Assembly (NCBI GenBank): GCA_965116885.1
Contig: OZ220741.1
Location: 4,192,001 to 4,256,000 of the forward strand
Length of the DNA: 64,000 bases
Direction of reading: 5' to 3'
From: Candidatus Latescibacterota bacterium
GTDB lineage: Bacteria > Latescibacterota > UBA2968
Shown piece by piece: positions 23,272 to 35,897 of this stretch (positions are counted from its first letter, which is position 1; each line of letters begins with the position of its first letter). Made by a program: the position numbers and the translations under genes. Under the pieces are notes generated by a model. It was given only the letters and a program-made list of their open reading frames with translations, did no database searches and was not told the DNA's origin.

Positions 23272-23344
23272 GCCCCTGTAGCTCAGAGGATAGAGTAGCG
23301 GATTCCTAATCCGTTGGTCGCAGGTTCGAGTCCTGCCAGGGGCA
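23272..23344 (+). tRNA. tRNA-Arg (anticodon CCT)
   Basis: Cloverleaf: acceptor GCCCCTG/CAGGGGC, D arm GCTC/GAGT, anticodon stem GCGGA/TCCGT with loop TTCCTAA, T arm GCAGG-TTCGAGT-CCTGC. CCA is not encoded. Confidence 0.95.
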
Positions 23345-23388
23345 CTTTTTTAAAAATAAATTCTATTAACGCAGCCGAGGAGTGAATT

Positions 23389-23580
23389 GTGAAACGCATT
23401 CTGACCATCTCCAAATTTGATCCAAACGAGAAAGCGTGCGATCATACGCGACACCTTACGGGTGACGAACGGGTTTCTCTCCTTGAGGGACTACGCCGAG
23501 AAATGTCTAAGGTAAGCCATCGTGAATATCCAAAAAGACTTCGAAGAGTTCTTACAATTGCTAAACGCAACGGGGGTTGA
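23389..23580 (+). CDS. Small hypothetical protein (63 aa), likely partner of the downstream nucleotidyltransferase
   Basis: GAGGAG RBS, GTG start, overlaps the nucleotidyltransferase remnant. Confidence 0.55.
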   Translation: MKRILTISKFDPNEKACDHTRHLTGDERVSLLEGLRREMSKVSHREYPKRLRRVLTIAKRNGG

Positions 23581-23711
23581 ATTTGTCATTGTTGGTGGAA
23601 ACTCCTGTCTTCTACATATCTCGATCAAACCTTCTTCACAACAAACGGGAATCCGCTCGCCCTAAGGATATCGCAGATGTGGACGAATTGGGCGGTAATA
23701 GAAACACTTAA
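23522..23711 (+). pseudogene. Nucleotidyltransferase (DUF6036-like), internally deleted
   Basis: N-terminus MNIQKDFEEFLQLLNATGVEFVIVGG is joined out of frame to C-terminus TPVFYISRSNLLHNKRESARPKDIADVDEL; the catalytic core is absent. Confidence 0.7.
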
Positions 23712-23727: not shown

Positions 23728-23803
23728 GGCGTCGTAGCTCAGAGGATAGAGTAGCAGCTTCCTACTCCGTTGGTCGCAGGTTCGAGTCCTGCCAAGGGAA
23801 CCA
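23728..23803 (+). pseudogene. Degenerate second copy of tRNA-Arg(CCT)
   Basis: 64 of 73 positions identical to 23272-23344 by manual alignment. Acceptor and anticodon stems are broken; ends in encoded CCA. Confidence 0.85.
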
Positions 23804-23810
23804 TGTAAAT

Positions 23811-23851
23811 AAAAAGCCCGTCAACCGGTGATGATCGACGGGCTTTTGTTT
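23811..23851. terminator. Intrinsic terminator (possibly bidirectional)
   Basis: AAAAGCCCGTC / GACGGGCTTTT hairpin. Confidence 0.75.
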
Positions 23852-24061: not shown

Positions 24062-24270
24062 TCATCTTTTGTCGTCTTTGAGTTTATCGGCCAGTGTCTC
24101 CAAAAGATCAGCAGAAGTTTCTCTAACACGACTGCTGTCTATCTTCTCAGAAATTCTGCGTAACACTTTGAGCGTGAGATATATAAGGCCCACCCCAATA
24201 GCGAACCATCCCAAGAACCAGAATAAAAAAAAACCAAGGCATCACTTCCTGCCATTGCGATAAGTGGCAT
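24062..24270 (-). pseudogene. Small single-TM protein, frameshifted in a T9 homopolymer
   Basis: AAGGAG RBS and ATG. With T10 the frame reads MPLIAMAGSDALVFFLFWFLGWFAIGVGLIYLTLKVLRRISEKIDSSRVRETSADLLETLADKLKDDKR. Confidence 0.55.
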
Positions 24271-24381
24271 CACTTGTCTCCTTGAAGCAAAGGTACTCAC
24301 CGAAACGGGTCAAGTCCAGTTCGAGTGATCGGCCTGCCTCGGGCACAACGCCAGTAATCTACATCTACTTATGGGGTAGGA

Positions 24382-25503
24382 TTAGGATGTAGCAATCAGA
24401 GCCTTTATGCCAGCGTTTTCCCGGAAGGACAAAGCCACGCTGTCAATATGCGGCTTATTCTTATAGTAGAACAGATCATCATGGGTGAGTCCTGTGATGT
24501 TCAGAGCCAAGTTCAACATATGGGGTTGAAGGTGTTTGTTTAGATATATTCCAATTCCGGCTCCAGCTGCCATACCGGCTATGCCACCGATCAGGTTGCC
24601 AACTCCCGGTACGGCTATGCCTGCGGCAGCCCCACCAAAACCACCGGCAGTTGACAAGACAGTTGAGACGCCAAAACGAGACATTAAAGTTAGGGTTTGC
24701 ACGACTTGCATCTTGTTTTTAGTGGTGCGATCAGCAGTGCTGAATTCCTTCTCAGTTTTGAGGACGTTGTGTATCAACTTAGCACCCATAAAAATTGCGC
24801 CCGCGTAAGGAACTATCTCTCCGATGCTGTCGGGCAGGTCAAAGCCCTGATTGGCACTGAGGGTTTCGAGACCATCATCTATCCCGTTCACCAGTTCATA
24901 GTCGTATCCTATATTGACCATTTGATCAATGAGTTCCGGACTACGTTCAGCGATTCTATCGTGGATTTCAGTGCTGACTAAGAAGTCTATATCAGGATTT
25001 TCCAGCATTCTTGACTGTACATCACTGGCGTAATCTGTGTTGCCGGTTTTGACTTGCCAAGCAATGGGGTCGCCGTTGGGAGCATTGCCGGTAATGTCAA
25101 ACACAGGTTGGTTAGGATTCGAGGCTATTTCCACGTTCAGGTAGCCGCGCTCCTCCAACATATCTTTAGCGTTGATTTCAGCCAATTTGCCTTTGAGTGG
25201 GTTTAAGAAGTTGTCGTAAGAATTCCCACCACGCTGCAGTATGTCTTGCCAGTGTTCGTGAAGAGATCCCTCGTAGTTCCCGAAGGCCATTTCGTGGGCT
25301 TGAGTCAGTTTATCATCCACGTTGATAGTATCAAAAATGTTCCACATTGCGAACGAGGTCGCCGCCGTTGCTTCTGCCGCATAAAGTCCTCGATCCCTGC
25401 TCAGCAGATCAGTGATTATATCCCGAAAGGATTTGCGCTGGCCAGATTCTGGACTGGGGAGTTTCTGTAGCTCCGGCAAAAGGTTTAGGGATTGCATAGC
25501 CAT
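24382..25503 (-). CDS. Hypothetical protein with a putative PD-(D/E)xK (QxK-type) nuclease domain and C-terminal glycine-zipper TM region
   Basis: 'KGKLAE...NQPVFDI...WQVK' then 'GGFGGAAAGIAVPGVGNLIGGIAGMAAGAGIG'; GGAGG RBS. Confidence 0.6.
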   Translation of the reverse strand: MAMQSLNLLPELQKLPSPESGQRKSFRDIITDLLSRDRGLYAAEATAATSFAMWNIFDTINVDDKLTQAHEMAFGNYEGSLHEHWQDILQRGGNSYDNFLNPLKGKLAEINAKDMLEERGYLNVEIASNPNQPVFDITGNAPNGDPIAWQVKTGNTDYASDVQSRMLENPDIDFLVSTEIHDRIAERSPELIDQMVNIGYDYELVNGIDDGLETLSANQGFDLPDSIGEIVPYAGAIFMGAKLIHNVLKTEKEFSTADRTTKNKMQVVQTLTLMSRFGVSTVLSTAGGFGGAAAGIAVPGVGNLIGGIAGMAAGAGIGIYLNKHLQPHMLNLALNITGLTHDDLFYYKNKPHIDSVALSFRENAGIKALIATS

Positions 25504-25515
25504 GATATTTGCCTC

Positions 25516-25995
25516 CTAAACGAGAACCGCGACGATTAGCGCGACTATGGAGATGATAGCACTGCCAGCAGCCACGACAGTAAGCCGGTTTCGGGTTTGA
25601 TGTGACTCCTGGCGCAGGGTCTCAAGTGCTTTGGCATGGGCTTCATTGAGTTGTTTTTGAGCAGTATCTAAAGCTGATTCATACTGTTGGGCCTGTTCAG
25701 ATAACGACTTTTGAGTGTTTTGTTCATGGGCTTCATTGAGTTGTTTTTGAGCAGTATCCAAAGCTGATTCATACTGTTGGGCCTGTTCAGATAACGACTT
25801 TTGGATGGTATCACTGAGTATTTGCTGCAAGTTGTCGTGCTCGGCTATGTGCTGGGTTAGCAGTTCGTGCTGACGAATGAATCGAGGAATTAGCTCTTGG
25901 TTGATTCGGTCCTGTTCCTCCCAGAAGCGCACCTTGTCCGCTATTTTGACAGTTTCATCACCGGTACCAGATTTGGTTTTTTGTAGATCATTCAT
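25516..25995 (-). CDS. Coiled-coil protein with C-terminal membrane anchor and internal tandem repeat
   Basis: AGGAG RBS, Q/E-rich heptads, hydrophobic C-terminus. Confidence 0.75.
   Translation of the reverse strand: MNDLQKTKSGTGDETVKIADKVRFWEEQDRINQELIPRFIRQHELLTQHIAEHDNLQQILSDTIQKSLSEQAQQYESALDTAQKQLNEAHEQNTQKSLSEQAQQYESALDTAQKQLNEAHAKALETLRQESHQTRNRLTVVAAGSAIISIVALIVAVLV
25635..25803. repeat. In-frame direct repeat, two 79-bp copies, 90-bp period
   Basis: 25635-25713 and 25725-25803 differ at one base; encodes QKSLSEQAQQYESALDTAQKQLNEAH twice. Confidence 0.92.
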
Positions 25996-26618: not shown

Positions 26619-26678
26619 TCAGTGCCCAATAACCACCTCCTTCAACGGAACAGACTTTGCAATGGAAAAAGGAAAGAG

Positions 26679-29591
26679 ATGCCCAAAACCAACGAAATCG
26701 CCTTCAATGTCCGGCTATTAGATGTGCTACAGACTAAGCATCCACGCTGGCGCGATCATGTCGGTGTGGAGCAACGAGATGTCCTCCGCGAGACCGCCCT
26801 GCAACCGGATATTGTCATTCGTCCTCCAAGCGGTGTACCGGTCATTATCGAGACAGAGTTTATGCCAGCGCGTAGCGTCGAAGCAGATGCTACGGCTCGT
26901 TTGGGGAAATTCCTGGAGTACAACGGCGACTTGATAGAGCAGACTATGGCTGTCCAGGTCCCACAAGAACTGAGCCGTGCGCCACAGAAAGACCTGGAGC
27001 GGCAAATCGAAGCCGCTGAGTTCCGGTACTGTACCTTTTCACAGCAAAAAAAGGATACTGTCGTGCGCTGGCCGTCTGAGGGTTGGCTCTCCGGCAGTAT
27101 TGATGATCTTGCTGCCTGCATTGAAAACGTCGCACTGTCCGAACGGCTGCTTGCTGAAGGAACGCAAATTCTGGAGCAAAGCATAGGCGAAGCCGCAGGC
27201 AAACTGCGCGAAACAGCCAGCATACAGGTGCTGGAGAAAATGGCTCAGTCTCTCCATCAAGAAGATGGCGAGCAAACCTCACGTATGGCCATGGCTATTG
27301 TCGCCAACGCCCTCGTCTTCCATACCGCTATTGTTGACGCTCACGGTATCGAAACCATCGACGAATTGCGTATTCCTGGTCGCAATGATGTCAGCAAGAG
27401 CCGTTTGCTCGAATGTTGGCAGCATATCCTTGACAATATCAATTACTATCCGATCTTCCGCATTGCCTCTGACCTGCTCCTGCCTATCGCCGACAGCACC
27501 GCGCATGCTGTTCTCAATCGTCTTGCTCAGGCAGCCAGTGATTTAGCTGGCTTAGGAGCTACTACCTTGCACGACCTCTCTGGACGCATGTTCCAAAGGC
27601 TTATTGCTGACCGGAAGTTCCTCGCCACGTTCTACACGCTACCGACATCTGCTGCTCTACTCGGTGAGTTGGCCGTGTCACGCCTCGACGCGGTAACGGA
27701 CTGGTCTAACCCCGATGCTCTCACTCGTCTCCAGGTCGCCGACCTTGCCTGCGGAACCGGTACCCTGCTCTCAGCGGCGTACCGCGCCCTGGCCTTGCGC
27801 CATCGGCGGACTGGCGGTGACGATCAGGAGTCGCATACTCAGATGATGGAACGCGCCCTTATTGCTGCCGACATTATGCCAGCGGCAACGCATCTAACTG
27901 CATCCATGCTGTCGAGCACCCATCCGGGCACAACCTTTGGTAACACCCGCGTCCATACTCTGCCTTATGGACAGCAGAGCCAGGAAAAACGGCACACTAT
28001 AGCTCTGGGTGCTCTCGACCTCATTGAGGATGACACCACACCATCGCTGTTTGGGACAGGCATCCATGTAGCGCGAGGTACGGGTGCAGATGTGGAAGCC
28101 GAGGGTAGTCAGGACATGATCCTCCCTCCCGAAACGGCCGATCTGGTAATTATGAATCCTCCCTTCACACGACCTACCAACCACGAAAAAGCCAAAGGGG
28201 TGCCTGTGCCATCGTTTGCCGGGTTAGGCACAAGTGAAGATGAACAGCGACAAATGAGTAGTCGATTAAAGGAAATATGCGCTAAAATAAAAAAGAAAGG
28301 GTACTTAGCTGGTCACGGAAACGCCGGGCTGGCCTCCAACTTTATTGACCTCGCCCATGTCAAGATCAGGCCCGGTGGCGTTCTCGCGCTGGTGTTGCCA
28401 GCAGCATTTGTGAGCGGTAGCTCATGGGCGAACTCCCGTCGCTTGCTGGAAAGCGAATACAAAGACTTGACCGTGCTGAGCATTGCGGCGTACGGCCAGA
28501 CAGATCGGGCCTTTTCAGCCGATACGGGCATGGCCGAGGTCCTCGTGGTGGCCAACAAGTGCCGCGGCGGACAACAGGGATCCGGAGAAACGCTGTTTGT
28601 CAATCTCTACCACCGGCCACACAACCTCGCGGAAGCCTTTGAGGTAGCGCGAGCGGTAGGTCGCCTATCGCCTCAAGCTCGACAAGGGCGGATTTGTGTA
28701 GGCGACCATGAGACTATTGGCACGTACATTCGGGCACCTTTGAGCCAGGGCGGTTGCACGTCCCTCCGCGAAACCACGCTCGCTTCCACCGCCATTGGGT
28801 TGGCCACCGGAACGCTTCAACTTCCTCAAGGATACTCCACAACGCTTTCTACAACTCAACTCAGGGTTCTTGGTAAGGAGGGATTATACCATCTCGATAT
28901 TATCGGAGGAATTAGCAAGGGAGTGCCGCGGGGACCGTTCAAAAAAAACGCCATTCAGGGCGTGCCGCAGTATCCGATGTTGTGGAGCCACAACGCGCAA
29001 CAAGAACGGGGCCTCGTCGTCCCACCCGATAGCGAAGGCGAGGTGCGCCCCGGATGCGACTCCCGTGCTATTGAGGTGTGGAACTCAACCGCCTCGCGGC
29101 TGCACTTCAGCCTCGATTTTCAGATCAACTCACAAAGCCTCACTGCTTGTCTCACGCCGACTGAAGCCATCGGCGGCACAGCGTGGCCCAACTTCATTCC
29201 GTCTCAAGACAAGTGGACCTTACCCCTCGTCTTGTGGGCCAACACTACATTGGGCCTCCTTGCCTTCTGGTGGATCGGAACTCGACAGCAACAAGGCCGC
29301 GCACGGCTCACGATTACTCAGCTACCTCGTCTAACTGTGTTGGACCCACGCCATCTCAGTGAGGAGCAGATCGCTCAAGCCGAAGACATCTTTGAAACAT
29401 TTAAGGGAAAGACATTCCTACCGGCCAACGAGGCGTACCGGGACGAAACTCGGAAAGCTCTCGACCATGCGGTTCTGGTGGACCTGTTGCGCCTACCCGA
29501 AGCAACTCTTGACCCTCTCTCCATTTTGCGCGACCAATGGTGCGCCGAGCCGAGCGTTCATGGTGGTAAATCGACGCGGATTGACGTTTAA
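26679..29591 (+). CDS. Fused restriction-modification enzyme, type IIG-like (nuclease + amino-methyltransferase + specificity region)
   Basis: N-terminal 'QPDIVI...IIETEF'; motif X 'ATFYT', motif I 'DLACGTG', motif IV 'MNPPF' in gamma-class order. Confidence 0.8.
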   Translation: MPKTNEIAFNVRLLDVLQTKHPRWRDHVGVEQRDVLRETALQPDIVIRPPSGVPVIIETEFMPARSVEADATARLGKFLEYNGDLIEQTMAVQVPQELSRAPQKDLERQIEAAEFRYCTFSQQKKDTVVRWPSEGWLSGSIDDLAACIENVALSERLLAEGTQILEQSIGEAAGKLRETASIQVLEKMAQSLHQEDGEQTSRMAMAIVANALVFHTAIVDAHGIETIDELRIPGRNDVSKSRLLECWQHILDNINYYPIFRIASDLLLPIADSTAHAVLNRLAQAASDLAGLGATTLHDLSGRMFQRLIADRKFLATFYTLPTSAALLGELAVSRLDAVTDWSNPDALTRLQVADLACGTGTLLSAAYRALALRHRRTGGDDQESHTQMMERALIAADIMPAATHLTASMLSSTHPGTTFGNTRVHTLPYGQQSQEKRHTIALGALDLIEDDTTPSLFGTGIHVARGTGADVEAEGSQDMILPPETADLVIMNPPFTRPTNHEKAKGVPVPSFAGLGTSEDEQRQMSSRLKEICAKIKKKGYLAGHGNAGLASNFIDLAHVKIRPGGVLALVLPAAFVSGSSWANSRRLLESEYKDLTVLSIAAYGQTDRAFSADTGMAEVLVVANKCRGGQQGSGETLFVNLYHRPHNLAEAFEVARAVGRLSPQARQGRICVGDHETIGTYIRAPLSQGGCTSLRETTLASTAIGLATGTLQLPQGYSTTLSTTQLRVLGKEGLYHLDIIGGISKGVPRGPFKKNAIQGVPQYPMLWSHNAQQERGLVVPPDSEGEVRPGCDSRAIEVWNSTASRLHFSLDFQINSQSLTACLTPTEAIGGTAWPNFIPSQDKWTLPLVLWANTTLGLLAFWWIGTRQQQGRARLTITQLPRLTVLDPRHLSEEQIAQAEDIFETFKGKTFLPANEAYRDETRKALDHAVLVDLLRLPEATLDPLSILRDQWCAEPSVHGGKSTRIDV

Positions 29592-29751: not shown

Positions 29752-30588
29752 ATGGCAACCCTACTGAGCGGCAGCCCGTTGAATCAAATTCTAGTGTTGT
29801 GTGTACAGATCTTTTCTTCCCTAATACAAATTTTAGTTTTTGGTATTATGGTATTTGTGTTTTTCCAGACAATGAGGCAGAACTTTAGAAAGGATATCGC
29901 AGACCGGATTGCAACATATAATACGCGCATATCCAACCTTCGGCTTGATGATCGCATAAAGTCTAAAAAGTTGCCTAATAACTCTGCTGAGGAAGATATT
30001 AAATTAGAGGATTTTTGTGGACATCGCGCCATTGGGTATTACTTTAATAAATTTGCATATTTGGTATTACAAATACGAACAAGCTTTAGCGACAACGACC
30101 TTAATCCGTATATGTTGAAGACATTATCTAAAAGATTTTTCACATATTACGATGAGTTAAAGGTCATCTACGAAGGCATCGTTCAAATAATGTTTCACAT
30201 TGAGAAATCTAAAGTATTCATGAGGTTTGAAAAAACTCGGATGTTTGAGGATATTCGAGCTTGTCTATCCAGTTTTGAAACTGGAATTTTGGCACTGTAT
30301 ATCTTTCAGCATTCGGAAAGTAAGGCATTAGAAAAAATTTTCAACTGCTATGGTTTTGAAAAGAGTGTGGATGAAGATTTTATACAATTTAGTGGTAGCG
30401 GGCCTTTCGGCAGCCATATACTGCCGCCATCCAACGACGCCTGCAATTTTATCCTGCTGAACAAAAAATGCTGGCATGAGGAGAAAGCGGTCTGCGAGCC
30501 AGAAAACTCCAAGCTGATGTCGTTTTTTTACAACGTATTTAGAAACTTATATACCAAAGAAGAGTATGCTAGGATTTTTGGGCGATAG
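29752..30588 (+). CDS. AT-rich hypothetical membrane-anchored protein, possibly putAbiC-like abortive-infection protein
   Basis: AAGGAG RBS, N-terminal TM, 'IRACLSSFE' recalls the putAbiC 'RAQLS..E' motif. Family call is tentative. Confidence 0.45.
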   Translation: MATLLSGSPLNQILVLCVQIFSSLIQILVFGIMVFVFFQTMRQNFRKDIADRIATYNTRISNLRLDDRIKSKKLPNNSAEEDIKLEDFCGHRAIGYYFNKFAYLVLQIRTSFSDNDLNPYMLKTLSKRFFTYYDELKVIYEGIVQIMFHIEKSKVFMRFEKTRMFEDIRACLSSFETGILALYIFQHSESKALEKIFNCYGFEKSVDEDFIQFSGSGPFGSHILPPSNDACNFILLNKKCWHEEKAVCEPENSKLMSFFYNVFRNLYTKEEYARIFGR

Positions 30589-30650
30589 TCTTGAGAAAGG
30601 TGGAGTTACCTCATTTCTATGAATAGATTCCGCTATTCAGCCTGCTACTT

Positions 30651-30965
30651 TTACGCGACCTCTTGTTGCCCTTCCACTGGAACGAAATTAATCTCGACCC
30701 TTTGATTCAATGCGATCGCGATTCTTTGAAGCATCGTAAGAGAGTGCCCTTCATAATCTGCATCCTCAAGGCGGGCAATAACTGGTTGTTTGGATCCGAT
30801 CAAGTTTGCCAATTCAGTCTGTGTCAAACCCGCCATCTTTCTGGCTTCATATATTAGACGAGCAACTTCTGCGTTGACTGTCTCCTCTGCAATCATCTGC
30901 TGCAATTCTTCATCATCCCCTGTTACATCATCCAGGATTCGATTTGCATCTCTTGTCTTAGCCAT
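30651..30965 (-). CDS. XRE-family HTH antitoxin (HigA-like)
   Basis: 'ARKMAGLTQTELANLIGSKQPVIARLEDADYEGHSLTMLQRIA'; AAGGAG RBS. Confidence 0.85.
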   Translation of the reverse strand: MAKTRDANRILDDVTGDDEELQQMIAEETVNAEVARLIYEARKMAGLTQTELANLIGSKQPVIARLEDADYEGHSLTMLQRIAIALNQRVEINFVPVEGQQEVA

Positions 30966-31020
30966 AGGTCACGTCTCCTTCAAACAAATACTGATCAGGA
31001 TTTGCTTCAAATCTAAGCCT
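30958..31020 (-). pseudogene. C-terminal remnant of a RelE/HigB-like toxin
   Basis: RLRFEANPDQYLFEGDVTYG* with its stop overlapping the antitoxin start; no start codon or toxin core upstream. Confidence 0.5.
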
Positions 31021-31230
31021 ATATAACAATATTATTATAAAAATGGCTCTGAATGTCAATGGCCAATCATCTTAGATGGAACCAGAAAATGATTGGGCGA
31101 TTCCCTGAGACTTGTCGGGTTGAATGCGTTACGAAACGTCTCTGCCACAGACCATCATGTCATATATACAACAAAATCAATATGTTATATTTTTTCTTAT
31201 TTTATAGTTATTTTAAGTTAAAAAAATAAC

Positions 31231-31259
31231 TTGACTTAACTCCTAACACATGCCATGTT
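31231..31259 (+). promoter_or_regulatory. Candidate promoter interrupted by the IS at its -10 region
   Basis: AT-rich UP-like tract, then TTGACT-N14-TGn-CATG(TT), abutting the IS right end. Confidence 0.4.
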
Positions 31260-31400
31260 GACGTACTCCCAAAGCTAAAGCATTGGGATTCTACAACCGT
31301 GTTGCTTCAGCAGGGATTGTGGGATCAACAGTAGTTGCCAGCTATGCAAGCCTGGTCTTACGCTACCTCCGCCATAGGTGGACGCCCCCACCTGTGAATG
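31258..31400 (-). ncRNA. TnpB omega/reRNA scaffold (5' limit approximate)
   Basis: Established position of the TnpB RNA, between the tnpB 3' end and the right-end TCAA; guide would come from the adjacent flank. Confidence 0.55.
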
Positions 31401-32464
31401 TTTATCGCCGCGTTGAGGTCTCTGTCTATTTCAAGACCACACGCGCAGCAGTGGAATGTTCTCTCTCGCAATTCGAGATTCTCTTTCACTGTATCACAAG
31501 CAGAGCAAGTCTTTGACGTGGGTAGCCATTTGTCGATTTGTTTGACAGCTTTGCCCGTCTTTTTTGCCACATACTTGAGAATGTTCAAAAAGTCTGAGAA
31601 GCCCAAATCGCTAATCTTTCTGCCCCACAACGCTTTCATGGCGTCGATATTCAGCGTTTCAAAATACATGAGGTCGTATTCCTCGCACAGTTGATAGGCA
31701 AGTCGCCAGTGATAGTCTCTGCGCTGATTAGCAACGCGCCTATGCACACGGGCATGATTCAACCTCGCTCTATGACGGTTGTTGCTCCCTTTCTTCTTGC
31801 GAGAAAGATTGCGATTAGCCTTTTTGACTTTTCTCGAATTACGATTGAAGAACAAAGGCGATTGTGTCTTTGTGCTGTCCGAGGCCGTTAGATATGTTTT
31901 CAAGCCAAAGTCAAAACCTGCGGTTTTACCCGTCTTGGCAATGTTCAACTCGAATCTTTCAGCCTTTGCAACAACACATAGCCACAAATCGCCTACGCGG
32001 TCACGCTTTATTGTGACCGTCTTGACACTATCTACATCGAACTTTCTGCTCTTGTGGTATCTGAATACGCACTTGCCAATACGCACTTTGTTACGCTCAA
32101 GGAATTTGTATCCAGCCTGTTTCAGCGTATAGGACTTGTATTTGAGCTTGCTACGGAATTGTGGTGGTCGCTTATTATCTCTATCAAAGAATTTCTGATA
32201 GCCAAAGTCTATACGCTCAATCACATTTTGCAATGCCTGGCTCGGCAACAGACGCCAATGTGCAAAGCGCGTTGTCCTTTTCAGCTTTGCCAAATGGTTA
32301 ATCATTGTGAACTTACTCGGATACTTATTGAATCTCTGGTAGTATCGCTTATGCAAGTCAATGAAATGATTATACACACCAGCAAAGGCGTCTATATCTC
32401 TATGGATATACTTATTGCGGTCACAGCGACTATACATCTTGTATTTGTATGTTAAGTATTCCAT
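31358..32464 (-). CDS. tnpB: RNA-guided endonuclease TnpB
   Basis: RuvC residues in 'GFDFG', 'FETL', 'DRDLNAA'; zinc finger CSAC...CCAC. Confidence 0.95.
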   Translation of the reverse strand: MEYLTYKYKMYSRCDRNKYIHRDIDAFAGVYNHFIDLHKRYYQRFNKYPSKFTMINHLAKLKRTTRFAHWRLLPSQALQNVIERIDFGYQKFFDRDNKRPPQFRSKLKYKSYTLKQAGYKFLERNKVRIGKCVFRYHKSRKFDVDSVKTVTIKRDRVGDLWLCVVAKAERFELNIAKTGKTAGFDFGLKTYLTASDSTKTQSPLFFNRNSRKVKKANRNLSRKKKGSNNRHRARLNHARVHRRVANQRRDYHWRLAYQLCEEYDLMYFETLNIDAMKALWGRKISDLGFSDFLNILKYVAKKTGKAVKQIDKWLPTSKTCSACDTVKENLELRERTFHCCACGLEIDRDLNAAINIHRWGRPPMAEVA

Positions 32465-32470
32465 AGTATA

Positions 32471-32499
32471 AATATACACAAAAACAGTAACTTATGCAA
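32471..32499 (-). promoter_or_regulatory. tnpB promoter, probably leaderless transcript
   Basis: TTGCAT-N17-TATATT, 6 nt before the ATG, no Shine-Dalgarno. Confidence 0.5.
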
Positions 32500-34445: not shown

Positions 34446-35897
34446 ATGGCCAACCAAAAACCACTGAATTTCATATTTTTTCAGCCCGACGAAATGCGAG
34501 CCGAAAGTTTGGGCTGTTACGGTCATCCATTGGTCAAAACCCCAAATTACGATCGCCTCGCAGCAGAAGGTGTTCGCTTTGATCAATGCCATGTGCAAAA
34601 CGCCCAGTGTACGCCTTCCAGAGTTTCGATGATGACGGGGCTTTATCCTCACTGTGCCGGACATCGCTCCATGTGGCATCTGATCAGGCCTCACGAACCC
34701 CATCTTTTTAAATATCTCCATGAAGCTGGCTACGACATTCACTGGTTTGGCAAAAACGATATTCTCGCGCCCGGAAGCTTGTCCTGCATCAAAGAATATT
34801 ATGAACACAAAGACGACAAAAGAAAGAACCGCTGGCAAAGTGGCGACAAAGAATTCTATAGCTTTGACTATCTCCCCCTCGACTGCGAAAGAGAAGAGAT
34901 TGCCGACTATGTGAAAGTCAAATCGGGAATCGATTTTTTGCGCAATCGCAATGACGATGACAATCCCTTCTTTTTATTTTTGCCACTTCTCCAACCCCAT
35001 CCAAGCTACACCACCCACCCTGATTTTTACGACATGTATGATCCCAAAGACATACCAGATTTGCGACCTCCAGACCTGGACAAAAAGCCAGACTTCTACA
35101 CACTCATCAGGAAATACCGTCGCCTTGATGAATTGTCAGATGCTTTCTTTCGAAAGTTGAATGCCGCTTATCTCGGCATGATCAGTTTTACCGACTGGCT
35201 TCTCGGAGAGCTGATGGCTGTTATGGAGGAGAAGGGCCTTTTTGAAAATACGGTTCTCATCGTTTCGTCTGATCACGGCGACTGGGCAGGCGACTATGGT
35301 TTGGTGGAAAAATGGCCCAGTGATTACAGCGACACACTGACGCGCGTACCGCTATTGGTCAAAGCACCCGGTAACAAAGCAGGTCATGTGGTCGAAGGCC
35401 CTGTTGAAATGTTTGACCTCCTGCCATCCGTTCTGGAACTGGCCGGTCTTTCACCCACACACACGCATTTCGCCAGGTCCTTTGTGCCTCAACTCCACGG
35501 AGAAGCAGAAGACAAAGACAGATTGGTATTCGCAGAAGGTGGCTATGAGACCCAAGAACCCCATGTGTTTGAAGGACGATGGAACTTGTGGAATAAGAAT
35601 CCCGAGCAGGATAGCATCTATTTGCCCAAAGGCAAATTGCAACAAGAAGTGCCCGAAAGTGTCTGCCGTACGACCATGATCAGGAGTTTGAATCACAAAC
35701 TTATTCGACGCACAGGCGGTCAGGACGAATTATACGATCTGGAGAATGATCCACGAGAGTTAGAAAATTTGATTGATGATCCTGGTATGCAAGAGACAAA
35801 ATCAGACCTGGAAAGTGCCATGCTCGATTGGTATATGAGAACCTCTGATACGGTTCCCGTAGGCGGAGATCCAAGAGGGTTTCCGCTTGAAAAATAG
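34446..35897 (+). CDS. Sulfatase (choline-sulfatase-like)
   Basis: 'CTPSR..MMTG', 'SDHG', 'ELYDLENDPRE'. Confidence 0.9.
   Translation: MANQKPLNFIFFQPDEMRAESLGCYGHPLVKTPNYDRLAAEGVRFDQCHVQNAQCTPSRVSMMTGLYPHCAGHRSMWHLIRPHEPHLFKYLHEAGYDIHWFGKNDILAPGSLSCIKEYYEHKDDKRKNRWQSGDKEFYSFDYLPLDCEREEIADYVKVKSGIDFLRNRNDDDNPFFLFLPLLQPHPSYTTHPDFYDMYDPKDIPDLRPPDLDKKPDFYTLIRKYRRLDELSDAFFRKLNAAYLGMISFTDWLLGELMAVMEEKGLFENTVLIVSSDHGDWAGDYGLVEKWPSDYSDTLTRVPLLVKAPGNKAGHVVEGPVEMFDLLPSVLELAGLSPTHTHFARSFVPQLHGEAEDKDRLVFAEGGYETQEPHVFEGRWNLWNKNPEQDSIYLPKGKLQQEVPESVCRTTMIRSLNHKLIRRTGGQDELYDLENDPRELENLIDDPGMQETKSDLESAMLDWYMRTSDTVPVGGDPRGFPLEK

Follow-up and report, generated by a model that had tools for sequence, protein, structure and literature searches.

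What do the three minus-strand genes predicted at positions 24062-25995 of a Candidatus Latescibacterota contig encode, and do they belong together? The genes lie in a 64,000-nucleotide stretch of contig OZ220741.1 (assembly GCA_965116885.1, positions 4,192,001 to 4,256,000), and this whole stretch is referred to here as the window. A first-pass annotation had described three co-oriented genes, each with a ribosome-binding site (RBS) and a membrane segment, as a candidate defence system. We refer to them as A, B and C. The open reading frames (ORFs) and RBSs of A and B and the transmembrane (TM) helix of A were confirmed, whereas C proved not to be intact and the hairpin of B is only marginally hydrophobic. 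We read A and B as a self-contained, horizontally mobile two-gene cassette that would encode a membrane-associated Mrr-type nuclease complex, most likely one restricting foreign nucleic acid, and we give this reading a probability of about 0.45. The two genes are:

25516-25995, minus strand: gene A, a 159-aa ORF whose product has a conserved N-terminal motif, followed by a coiled coil that varies in length and by a TM helix at the C-terminus

24382-25503, minus strand: gene B, a 373-aa ORF with an N-terminal helical part, a predicted Mrr-like PD-(D/E)xK domain, a glycine-zipper hairpin and a C-terminal motif

A and B are translationally coupled: B starts 12 nt past the stop codon of A, and the AGGAGG sequence of B (25517-25512) overlaps that stop codon. 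One genome per species was scanned for B with a 14-sequence alignment, which gave 79 loci in other genomes, and a homologue of A detected by blastp lies directly upstream of B on the same strand in 73 of them. Five of the six loci without A hold partial or contig-end matches to B, and the sixth (L089) has a B that is distant though full-length. In 41 related genomes the A profile matched 10 times, and each of these matches abuts a B match. When the flanking ORFs of the 79 loci were clustered, the B family was found at 78 loci, the A family at 65 and the next family at 7. A and B are an obligate pair.

The 373-aa protein had been annotated as carrying E...D...QxK motifs followed by a glycine zipper, and both elements were located in B, the motif at E109, D136 and Q150-V-K152 and the zipper in the hairpin of residues 279-322:

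24829-25326, minus strand: predicted nuclease-like domain of B, residues 60-225, with the motif residues K104-G-K106, E109, D136, Q150-V-K152 and E179

24538-24669, minus strand: glycine-zipper helical hairpin of B, residues 279-322, with GxxxG-type repeats in the sequence and two adjacent helices

B was modelled with AlphaFold2 both at full length (predicted local distance difference test, pLDDT, 82.6) and as residues 60-225 alone (pLDDT 88.7, predicted template-modelling score, pTM, 0.83). The domain was folded alone since the list from the VIA exhaustive structure search with the whole model consisted of unspecific long-helix matches to the C-terminal part. The domain model has an alpha-beta-beta-beta-alpha-beta core (helix 35-59, strands 63-67, 78-81 and 87-93, helix 97-109 and strand 114-117 in domain numbering), with D136 and the QVK residues beside or on the second and third predicted core strands. 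The best-ranked Foldseek matches were EcoO109I (5.7e-3), DdmD, EcoT38I, MspJI and NucS. In the VIA search with the domain, the best neighbour was the influenza PA endonuclease (Z 6.4; 131 residues, root-mean-square deviation 5.1), followed by PaqCI (6.0), AF1548 (5.8) and XisH (5.8), and further neighbours included CdiA-CT toxins, HamA, YaeQ, Bax1, Hjc and Card1; most of the listed neighbours are PD-(D/E)xK proteins. Among the domain sequences of 54 full-length B homologues, Mrr_cat was the commonest Pfam match (10 sequences, best E 1.5e-6), and the other matches were NOV_C (9), pPIWI_RE_REase (4) and NERD (1). The Mrr-like QxK nuclease domain postulated in the first-pass annotation is thus supported by the fold model, by its PD-(D/E)xK neighbours and by the Mrr_cat matches of the relatives. 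A profile search of PDB sequences with B gave just two chance-level, glycine-rich matches (E 3.9 and 6.2), and the ESM Atlas matches fall in clusters named only "hypothetical protein", with MamC (15% of members) and YeeR_C as candidate leads. The assignment of B to the PD-(D/E)xK fold is sound, though each single line of evidence is modest.

The 54 homologues are also informative about the putative active site. E109 and K152 are invariant among them, and K104, G105, K106, D136, Q150, E179, P224, D225, G291, G310, G314, P327 and Y346 are shared by 90% or more of the sequences; a conserved motif, DDLFYYKNKxxID, lies at the C-terminal end. The E, D and QxK residues are under strong selection. Long forms of B, with at least 440 aa, account for 32 of 278 homologous proteins, and in most of them the domain is present a second time, in full or in part. 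In 16 of them the first copy lacks D136 and has K152 replaced by E, with the membrane-proximal copy intact. Eight others have the acidic and Q residues in both copies, including P0050, whose second copy has K152 replaced by R. The complete E-D-Q-K set is present in at least one copy in 30 of the 32, and judged by these sequences the site of B looks functional.

The most hydrophobic stretches of B are the Gly/Ala-rich helix pair at residues 279-322 and residues 230-248, with scores of just 1.2-1.5. Glycine-zipper families match a number of the 54 homologues (Gly-zipper_Omp 12, DUF6861 12 and DUF1269 6), and the profile of the LeoB membrane hairpin matches 9, its match in the window's B being confined to residues 287-318. 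The hairpin is probably a membrane-insertion or oligomerisation element.

The partner of B is the tail-anchored coiled-coil protein that had been annotated: the 159-aa ORF of A is preceded by AGGAG at 26008-26004, spaced 8 nt from its ATG, and ends in a TM helix, and the protein outside this anchor is charged and helical. Its parts are:

25519-25575, minus strand: C-terminal TM anchor of A, residues 141-159, with a Kyte-Doolittle mean of 2.8 over 19 residues

25837-25944, minus strand: conserved motif of A, residues 18-53 (I-x3-VRFWEEQDxINQxLIPRxIxQxxLLxxHxxxH), from an alignment of 42 homologues

25635-25803, minus strand: tandem duplication of 90 nt (30 aa) in the coiled coil of A

Strong conservation in the 42 homologues is confined to this N-terminal motif of about 40 residues, in which F24, W25, E27, I31, N32 and R38 are invariant. 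The length of the coiled coil differs widely between homologues, as seen from variable gaps in the alignment, and in the window the repeat consists of two 79-nt copies at 99% identity, 90 nt apart. We infer that A anchors B at the membrane and that the conserved motif is a candidate contact site for B. A predicted complex of B with A scored 0.00 in two runs, which counts neither for nor against binding. Two distant B-like proteins bear on the anchoring role. They are found at loci L010 and L011 (genomes G020 and G007), are 465-469 aa long with 26-27% identity, and have an NxK variant of the motif. Their genomes contain no match to A, and both proteins have an N-terminal hydrophobic stretch of their own that, read from the sequence, is TM-like. 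A role of A as the membrane anchor of B would fit this arrangement. The neighbours of L010 and L011 include genes that, on their sequences, are GIY-YIG-like and PLD-like.

Two further architectures were considered and rejected. Just 6 of 74 homologues of A, whose records are all titled Latescibacterota or Latescibacteria, carry a glyoxalase/VOC domain fused in front, so that this domain was not counted with the module; in the remaining 68, Pfam gave either no domain or low-complexity matches only. P0279 (673 aa, one contig) resembles an A-B fusion, but in it the A-type TM segment is replaced by unrelated residues before the start of B, and a frameshift is probable.

The B family is small. A word-indexed search returned 627 relatives at E ≤ 1e-3, and a set of 1.84 billion proteins yielded 281 cluster representatives at 50% identity, of which 98 reach E ≤ 1e-30. 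A Pfam domain was found in none of the relatives, and their sole informative name does not fit. Within the genus, B was found in 10 of the 20 other genomes, compared with none of the 20 searched genomes of neighbouring genera and families, and its genomic position differs between genomes. The window's genome itself carries a second A-B copy (G000:C1:1784731-1786695, L012) with one of the VOC-fused A proteins and a 525-aa B whose nuclease-like domain is duplicated, as in the forms in which D and K are gone from the first copy. By record title, the majority of the 79 loci belong to Dehalococcoidia, Chloroflexota or SAR202, and the other titles include Latescibacterota, Bryobacterales, Gemmatimonadetes, Rhodothermales, Melioribacteraceae, Ignavibacteriaceae, Weeksellaceae and Moraxella lacunata. 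Between Latescibacterota and Dehalococcoidia records, the B proteins share 57-61% identity.

A quick maximum-likelihood tree, unrooted, was built from 52 full-length B sequences, namely the window's B and those of 51 of the 79 loci; the 28 loci left out have a B outside 340-400 aa or below 90% coverage. The Latescibacterota sequences form one clade (Shimodaira-Hasegawa approximate likelihood-ratio test, SH-aLRT, 98), an Acidobacteriota and Gemmatimonadota clade (99) lies within a Chloroflexota clade (98), and the Ignavibacteriota sequences are sister to a SAR202/Dehalococcoidia group (100). The other phyla are thus nested in Chloroflexota diversity in this unrooted tree. The A-B cassette is patchy within the genus and moves between phyla.

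No named system matched the pair in the profile and literature comparisons, and the first-pass annotation had not recognised one either. The closest likeness is to the Mrr (Mrr_cat, PF04471) type IV enzymes, which share with B a PD-(D/E)xK core with D...QxK and have no cognate methylase travelling along. Unlike Mrr, B lacks an Mrr_N-type DNA-binding domain and has an N-terminal helical extension, a C-terminal glycine-zipper hairpin and an obligate tail-anchored coiled-coil partner. In Zorya, the tail of ZorA is a membrane-anchored long coiled coil that acts with nuclease effectors, and A-B resembles it in that a coiled coil anchored in the membrane and variable in length is combined with a nuclease-type effector in the cytoplasm. 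However, A-B has two genes only and lacks a MotA/ExbB-like channel domain, the one TM helix of A is at its C-terminus, and the ZorA matches of A are weak (E 2e-3 or worse) and cover the coiled coil only. Glycine-zipper proteins (Gly-zipper_Omp PF13488, DUF6861, DUF1269 and the LeoB hairpin) have a similar Gly/Ala-rich hairpin with GxxxG-type spacing, but the B matches are short and compositional, and none of the defining domains of these families is present in B. In contrast to the dynamin-like Eleos/LeoBC proteins, no GTPase family was found in Pfam scans of A or B.

The PADLOC profiles of PDC-M72B match 36 and 29 of the 54 B homologues (best E 4e-11) and the window's own B at 2.3e-4 over residues 101-186. 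These profiles, with 168-193 positions, cover the core domain of B only. PDC-M72A is absent from the 14 families listed for gene A of the window (E ≤ 0.1) and from the best 25 of the 31 families for the 42 A homologues. PDC systems are described, in the text of the article that introduces them, as 145 untested candidates found embedded in known defence systems (10.1101/2024.01.29.577857). A literature search that covered article text found no mention of PDC-M72. It also found no description of the A-B pair, and the passages found in PMC11090510 concern other systems. The domain-level match of B to PDC-M72B, a PADLOC candidate, is the sole link to the defence catalogues. Judged by these profile comparisons, the pair is not Mrr proper, Zorya, a Leo dynamin or PDC-M72 as defined.

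What might the pair do? A role in defence or conflict is plausible, and A-B may be a new module against foreign DNA. In such a module A would be anchored in the inner membrane with its coiled coil projecting into the cytoplasm, and B would be docked by the conserved N-terminal motif of A and held at the membrane by its glycine-zipper hairpin, where it would act as a DNA-cutting enzyme, with modified DNA or incoming DNA close to the membrane as its probable targets. Mrr-type (type IV) enzymes need no cognate methylase, and a type IV-like action would fit A-B because no methylase travels with the cassette. A more far-reaching version would make the pair a new class of two-component, membrane-anchored restriction machine, spread horizontally among uncultured bacteria of at least six phyla, in which A is a "ruler" that sets the Mrr-type B at the inner membrane face to destroy incoming foreign DNA, or in which a trigger switches the glycine zipper to a lethal pore. 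We consider this version less likely than not.

Several results weigh against a membrane-associated restriction nuclease. Foldseek with B found no structure at E ≤ 1e-3, and the VIA search with the B domain found no neighbour at Z ≥ 8, its single matches being weak. The window's own B domain has no Mrr_cat match at E ≤ 1, the matches coming from relatives only, and Pfam scans of B and the 54 homologues found no DNA-recognition domain, including the Mrr_N type. The QxK motif is without one acidic ligand of the canonical site. The hydrophobicity of B is marginal (maximum 1.5), so that its membrane insertion stays predicted. Searches of phage records, plasmid records and IMG/VR contigs found no relative of B. 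The closest flanking ORFs with a length of 100 aa or more, 150 in all, were compared with Pfam, and 76 of them gave matches at E ≤ 1e-6; 54 of the 76 are metabolic or housekeeping genes. The other 22, which would fit an accessory and mobile cassette, are of toxin-antitoxin (TA), restriction-modification, CRISPR-ancillary, TIR, HEPN, Schlafen/AlbA, transposase or integrase type. These counts were made without a matched random-gene control and show only that the surroundings of the cassette are mixed.

The glycine zipper invites a different reading, in which the nuclease-like domain is a sensor of nucleic acid or of some other signal, the hairpins of B oligomerise and depolarise the membrane as an abortive-infection pore, and A serves as scaffold or brake. 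Defence systems commonly link a sensor domain to a membrane-disrupting effector, and the matches of glycine-zipper families to the B homologues, the near-invariance of G291, G310 and G314 and the tight coupling of the two genes are all consistent with it. The hydrophobicity of B is nevertheless low for a pore helix, and the retention of the full catalytic set, with dead copies occurring only beside an intact one, argues for chemistry rather than mere binding; we therefore regard a pore as unlikely. A function outside conflict, such as DNA processing in uptake or export, nucleoid tethering or membrane remodelling, with the nuclease fold as a DNA-binding or processing module, would explain the metabolic and housekeeping neighbours, the lack of phage and plasmid copies, the high sequence conservation and the presence of two copies in the window's genome. 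We doubt it because half of the congeneric genomes searched and all 20 from neighbouring genera lack B, and because the position of B varies and in the window is a strain-specific island. The same patchy, cross-phylum distribution, together with a two-gene layout with overlapping stop codon and RBS and the frequency of TA genes among the neighbours, could also point to an addiction-type TA pair, a selfish cassette with no role in defence in which A would neutralise B, a toxin acting on the membrane or as a nuclease. Yet A and B are much larger and more conserved across phyla than well-known TA pairs, as the identity of B between Latescibacterota and Dehalococcoidia illustrates, and A, a structural coiled coil with a TM anchor, is unlike known antitoxins, which makes this explanation improbable.

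If the A-B cassette is a defence module as we propose, it would add a compact system of two genes in which a restriction-type nuclease is combined with a membrane hairpin and a coiled-coil anchor, an architecture present as a system in none of the searched catalogues. It is in any case a clear case of an accessory cassette shared across phyla among uncultured bacteria. The B family, with its 281 clusters, is sharply defined, and its invariant motifs would ease mutational tests; the relative in the cultured strain Moraxella lacunata CCUG 4441 (L080) is a practical starting point.

The third gene has a different history:

24062-24283, minus strand: gene C, a real coding frame that is frameshifted at a run of nine T (24225-24233), outside the conserved A-B module

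C had been proposed as an intact gene for a single-TM protein of about 69 aa. The listed ORFs are instead one of 50 aa at 24062-24214, with a TTG start and no RBS, and one of 53 aa at 24139-24300 in the other frame. An AAGGAG sequence (24283-24278) is followed by an ATG (24270) in the frame of the 53-aa ORF, but reading from this ATG ends after 43 codons, and the TM helix and charged tail (24214-24062) are in a different frame. The nine T lie between the ATG and the TM frame, and a 69-aa protein needs ten. The nine-T run was confirmed in the main Logan contigs of two public runs (depths 46 and 20), which hold 88% of the sampled words. A minor divergent contig has one extra base in the run (depth 5.9 in run X1, and a depth-3 contig in run X2). 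Seven of the 10 listed substitutions of this contig in the TM/tail frame are synonymous and three are conservative (V-I, S-G and L-I), and in the other frame the same 10 include a stop codon. The substitutions thus show that the TM/tail frame is coding, and C is a real gene that carries a frameshift in this strain.

As to the conserved trio that had been suggested, the pairing of A and B stands, but tblastn and blastp searches with both frames of C found no homologue at the 79 loci of other genomes or at the 11 other loci of the relatives' set, which has 12 loci including the window's own (L001). The divergent contig departs from the window beyond 24281 and before 24049, i.e., before B is reached, and other contigs break at 24287-24320. 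C is a separate gene, unlinked to A-B. The summed contig depth is four-fold higher at 24270-24343 (210 versus about 50 in X1), and in three runs contigs depart from the window at 24281-24320. This segment, on the downstream border of the cassette, may be a short element that is repeated or prone to recombination.

In the window, the cassette lies in an island next to a tRNA gene:

23272-23345, plus strand: tRNA-Arg(CCT), the anchor of the variable island

23734-23815, plus strand: degenerate direct copy of the 3' part of the tRNA-Arg and its flank, with 87% identity over 82 nt

The copy, which was also scored at 93% identity over 68 nt, starts 389 nt past the tRNA and looks like an att-like scar of an earlier integration. 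Between the tRNA and the copy lie overlapping short ORFs (23389-23580 and 23522-23665) that resemble gene fragments. What immediately follows the tRNA in two congeners (G009 and G002) corresponds to the window from about position 35895 on, and in a third (G004) from about 33323 on. The island is therefore absent from these three genomes and is a strain-specific segment of 10-12.5 kb, in agreement with the tRNA-adjacent variable island of the first-pass annotation. Its G+C content falls to 0.42-0.47 in parts and is 0.42 in 29752-32479.

The island also encodes a 989-aa N6-adenine-methylase-like protein (26622-29591) with an NPPF motif, which matches a PADLOC type II methyltransferase profile (4e-8) and mad2 (5.5e-7) and may be a fused type IIG-like restriction-modification enzyme; its gene is not conserved beside A-B elsewhere. 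The low-G+C stretch 29752-32479 encodes a 278-aa protein that is hydrophobic in its N-terminal part and has an AbiC-like match below threshold (E 0.035), and it also holds a helix-turn-helix gene (30651-30965) and a TnpB/IS605 OrfB gene (31358-32479). At other loci, a gene of 307-311 aa (MGKYDTISKRL...) with no Pfam match lies just downstream of B in five cases, including L013 and L014. It was also seen at L003 and L004, several of its loci are from Latescibacterota, and we take it to resemble the Rpn/YhgA-like recombination-promoting nucleases. Past the island in the window, the segment 33375-46772 is common to the congeners and encodes three sulfatases, two PhyH dioxygenases, a thiamine pyrophosphate enzyme, a NIPSNAP protein, a four-carbon acid sugar kinase-like protein and a class II aldolase.

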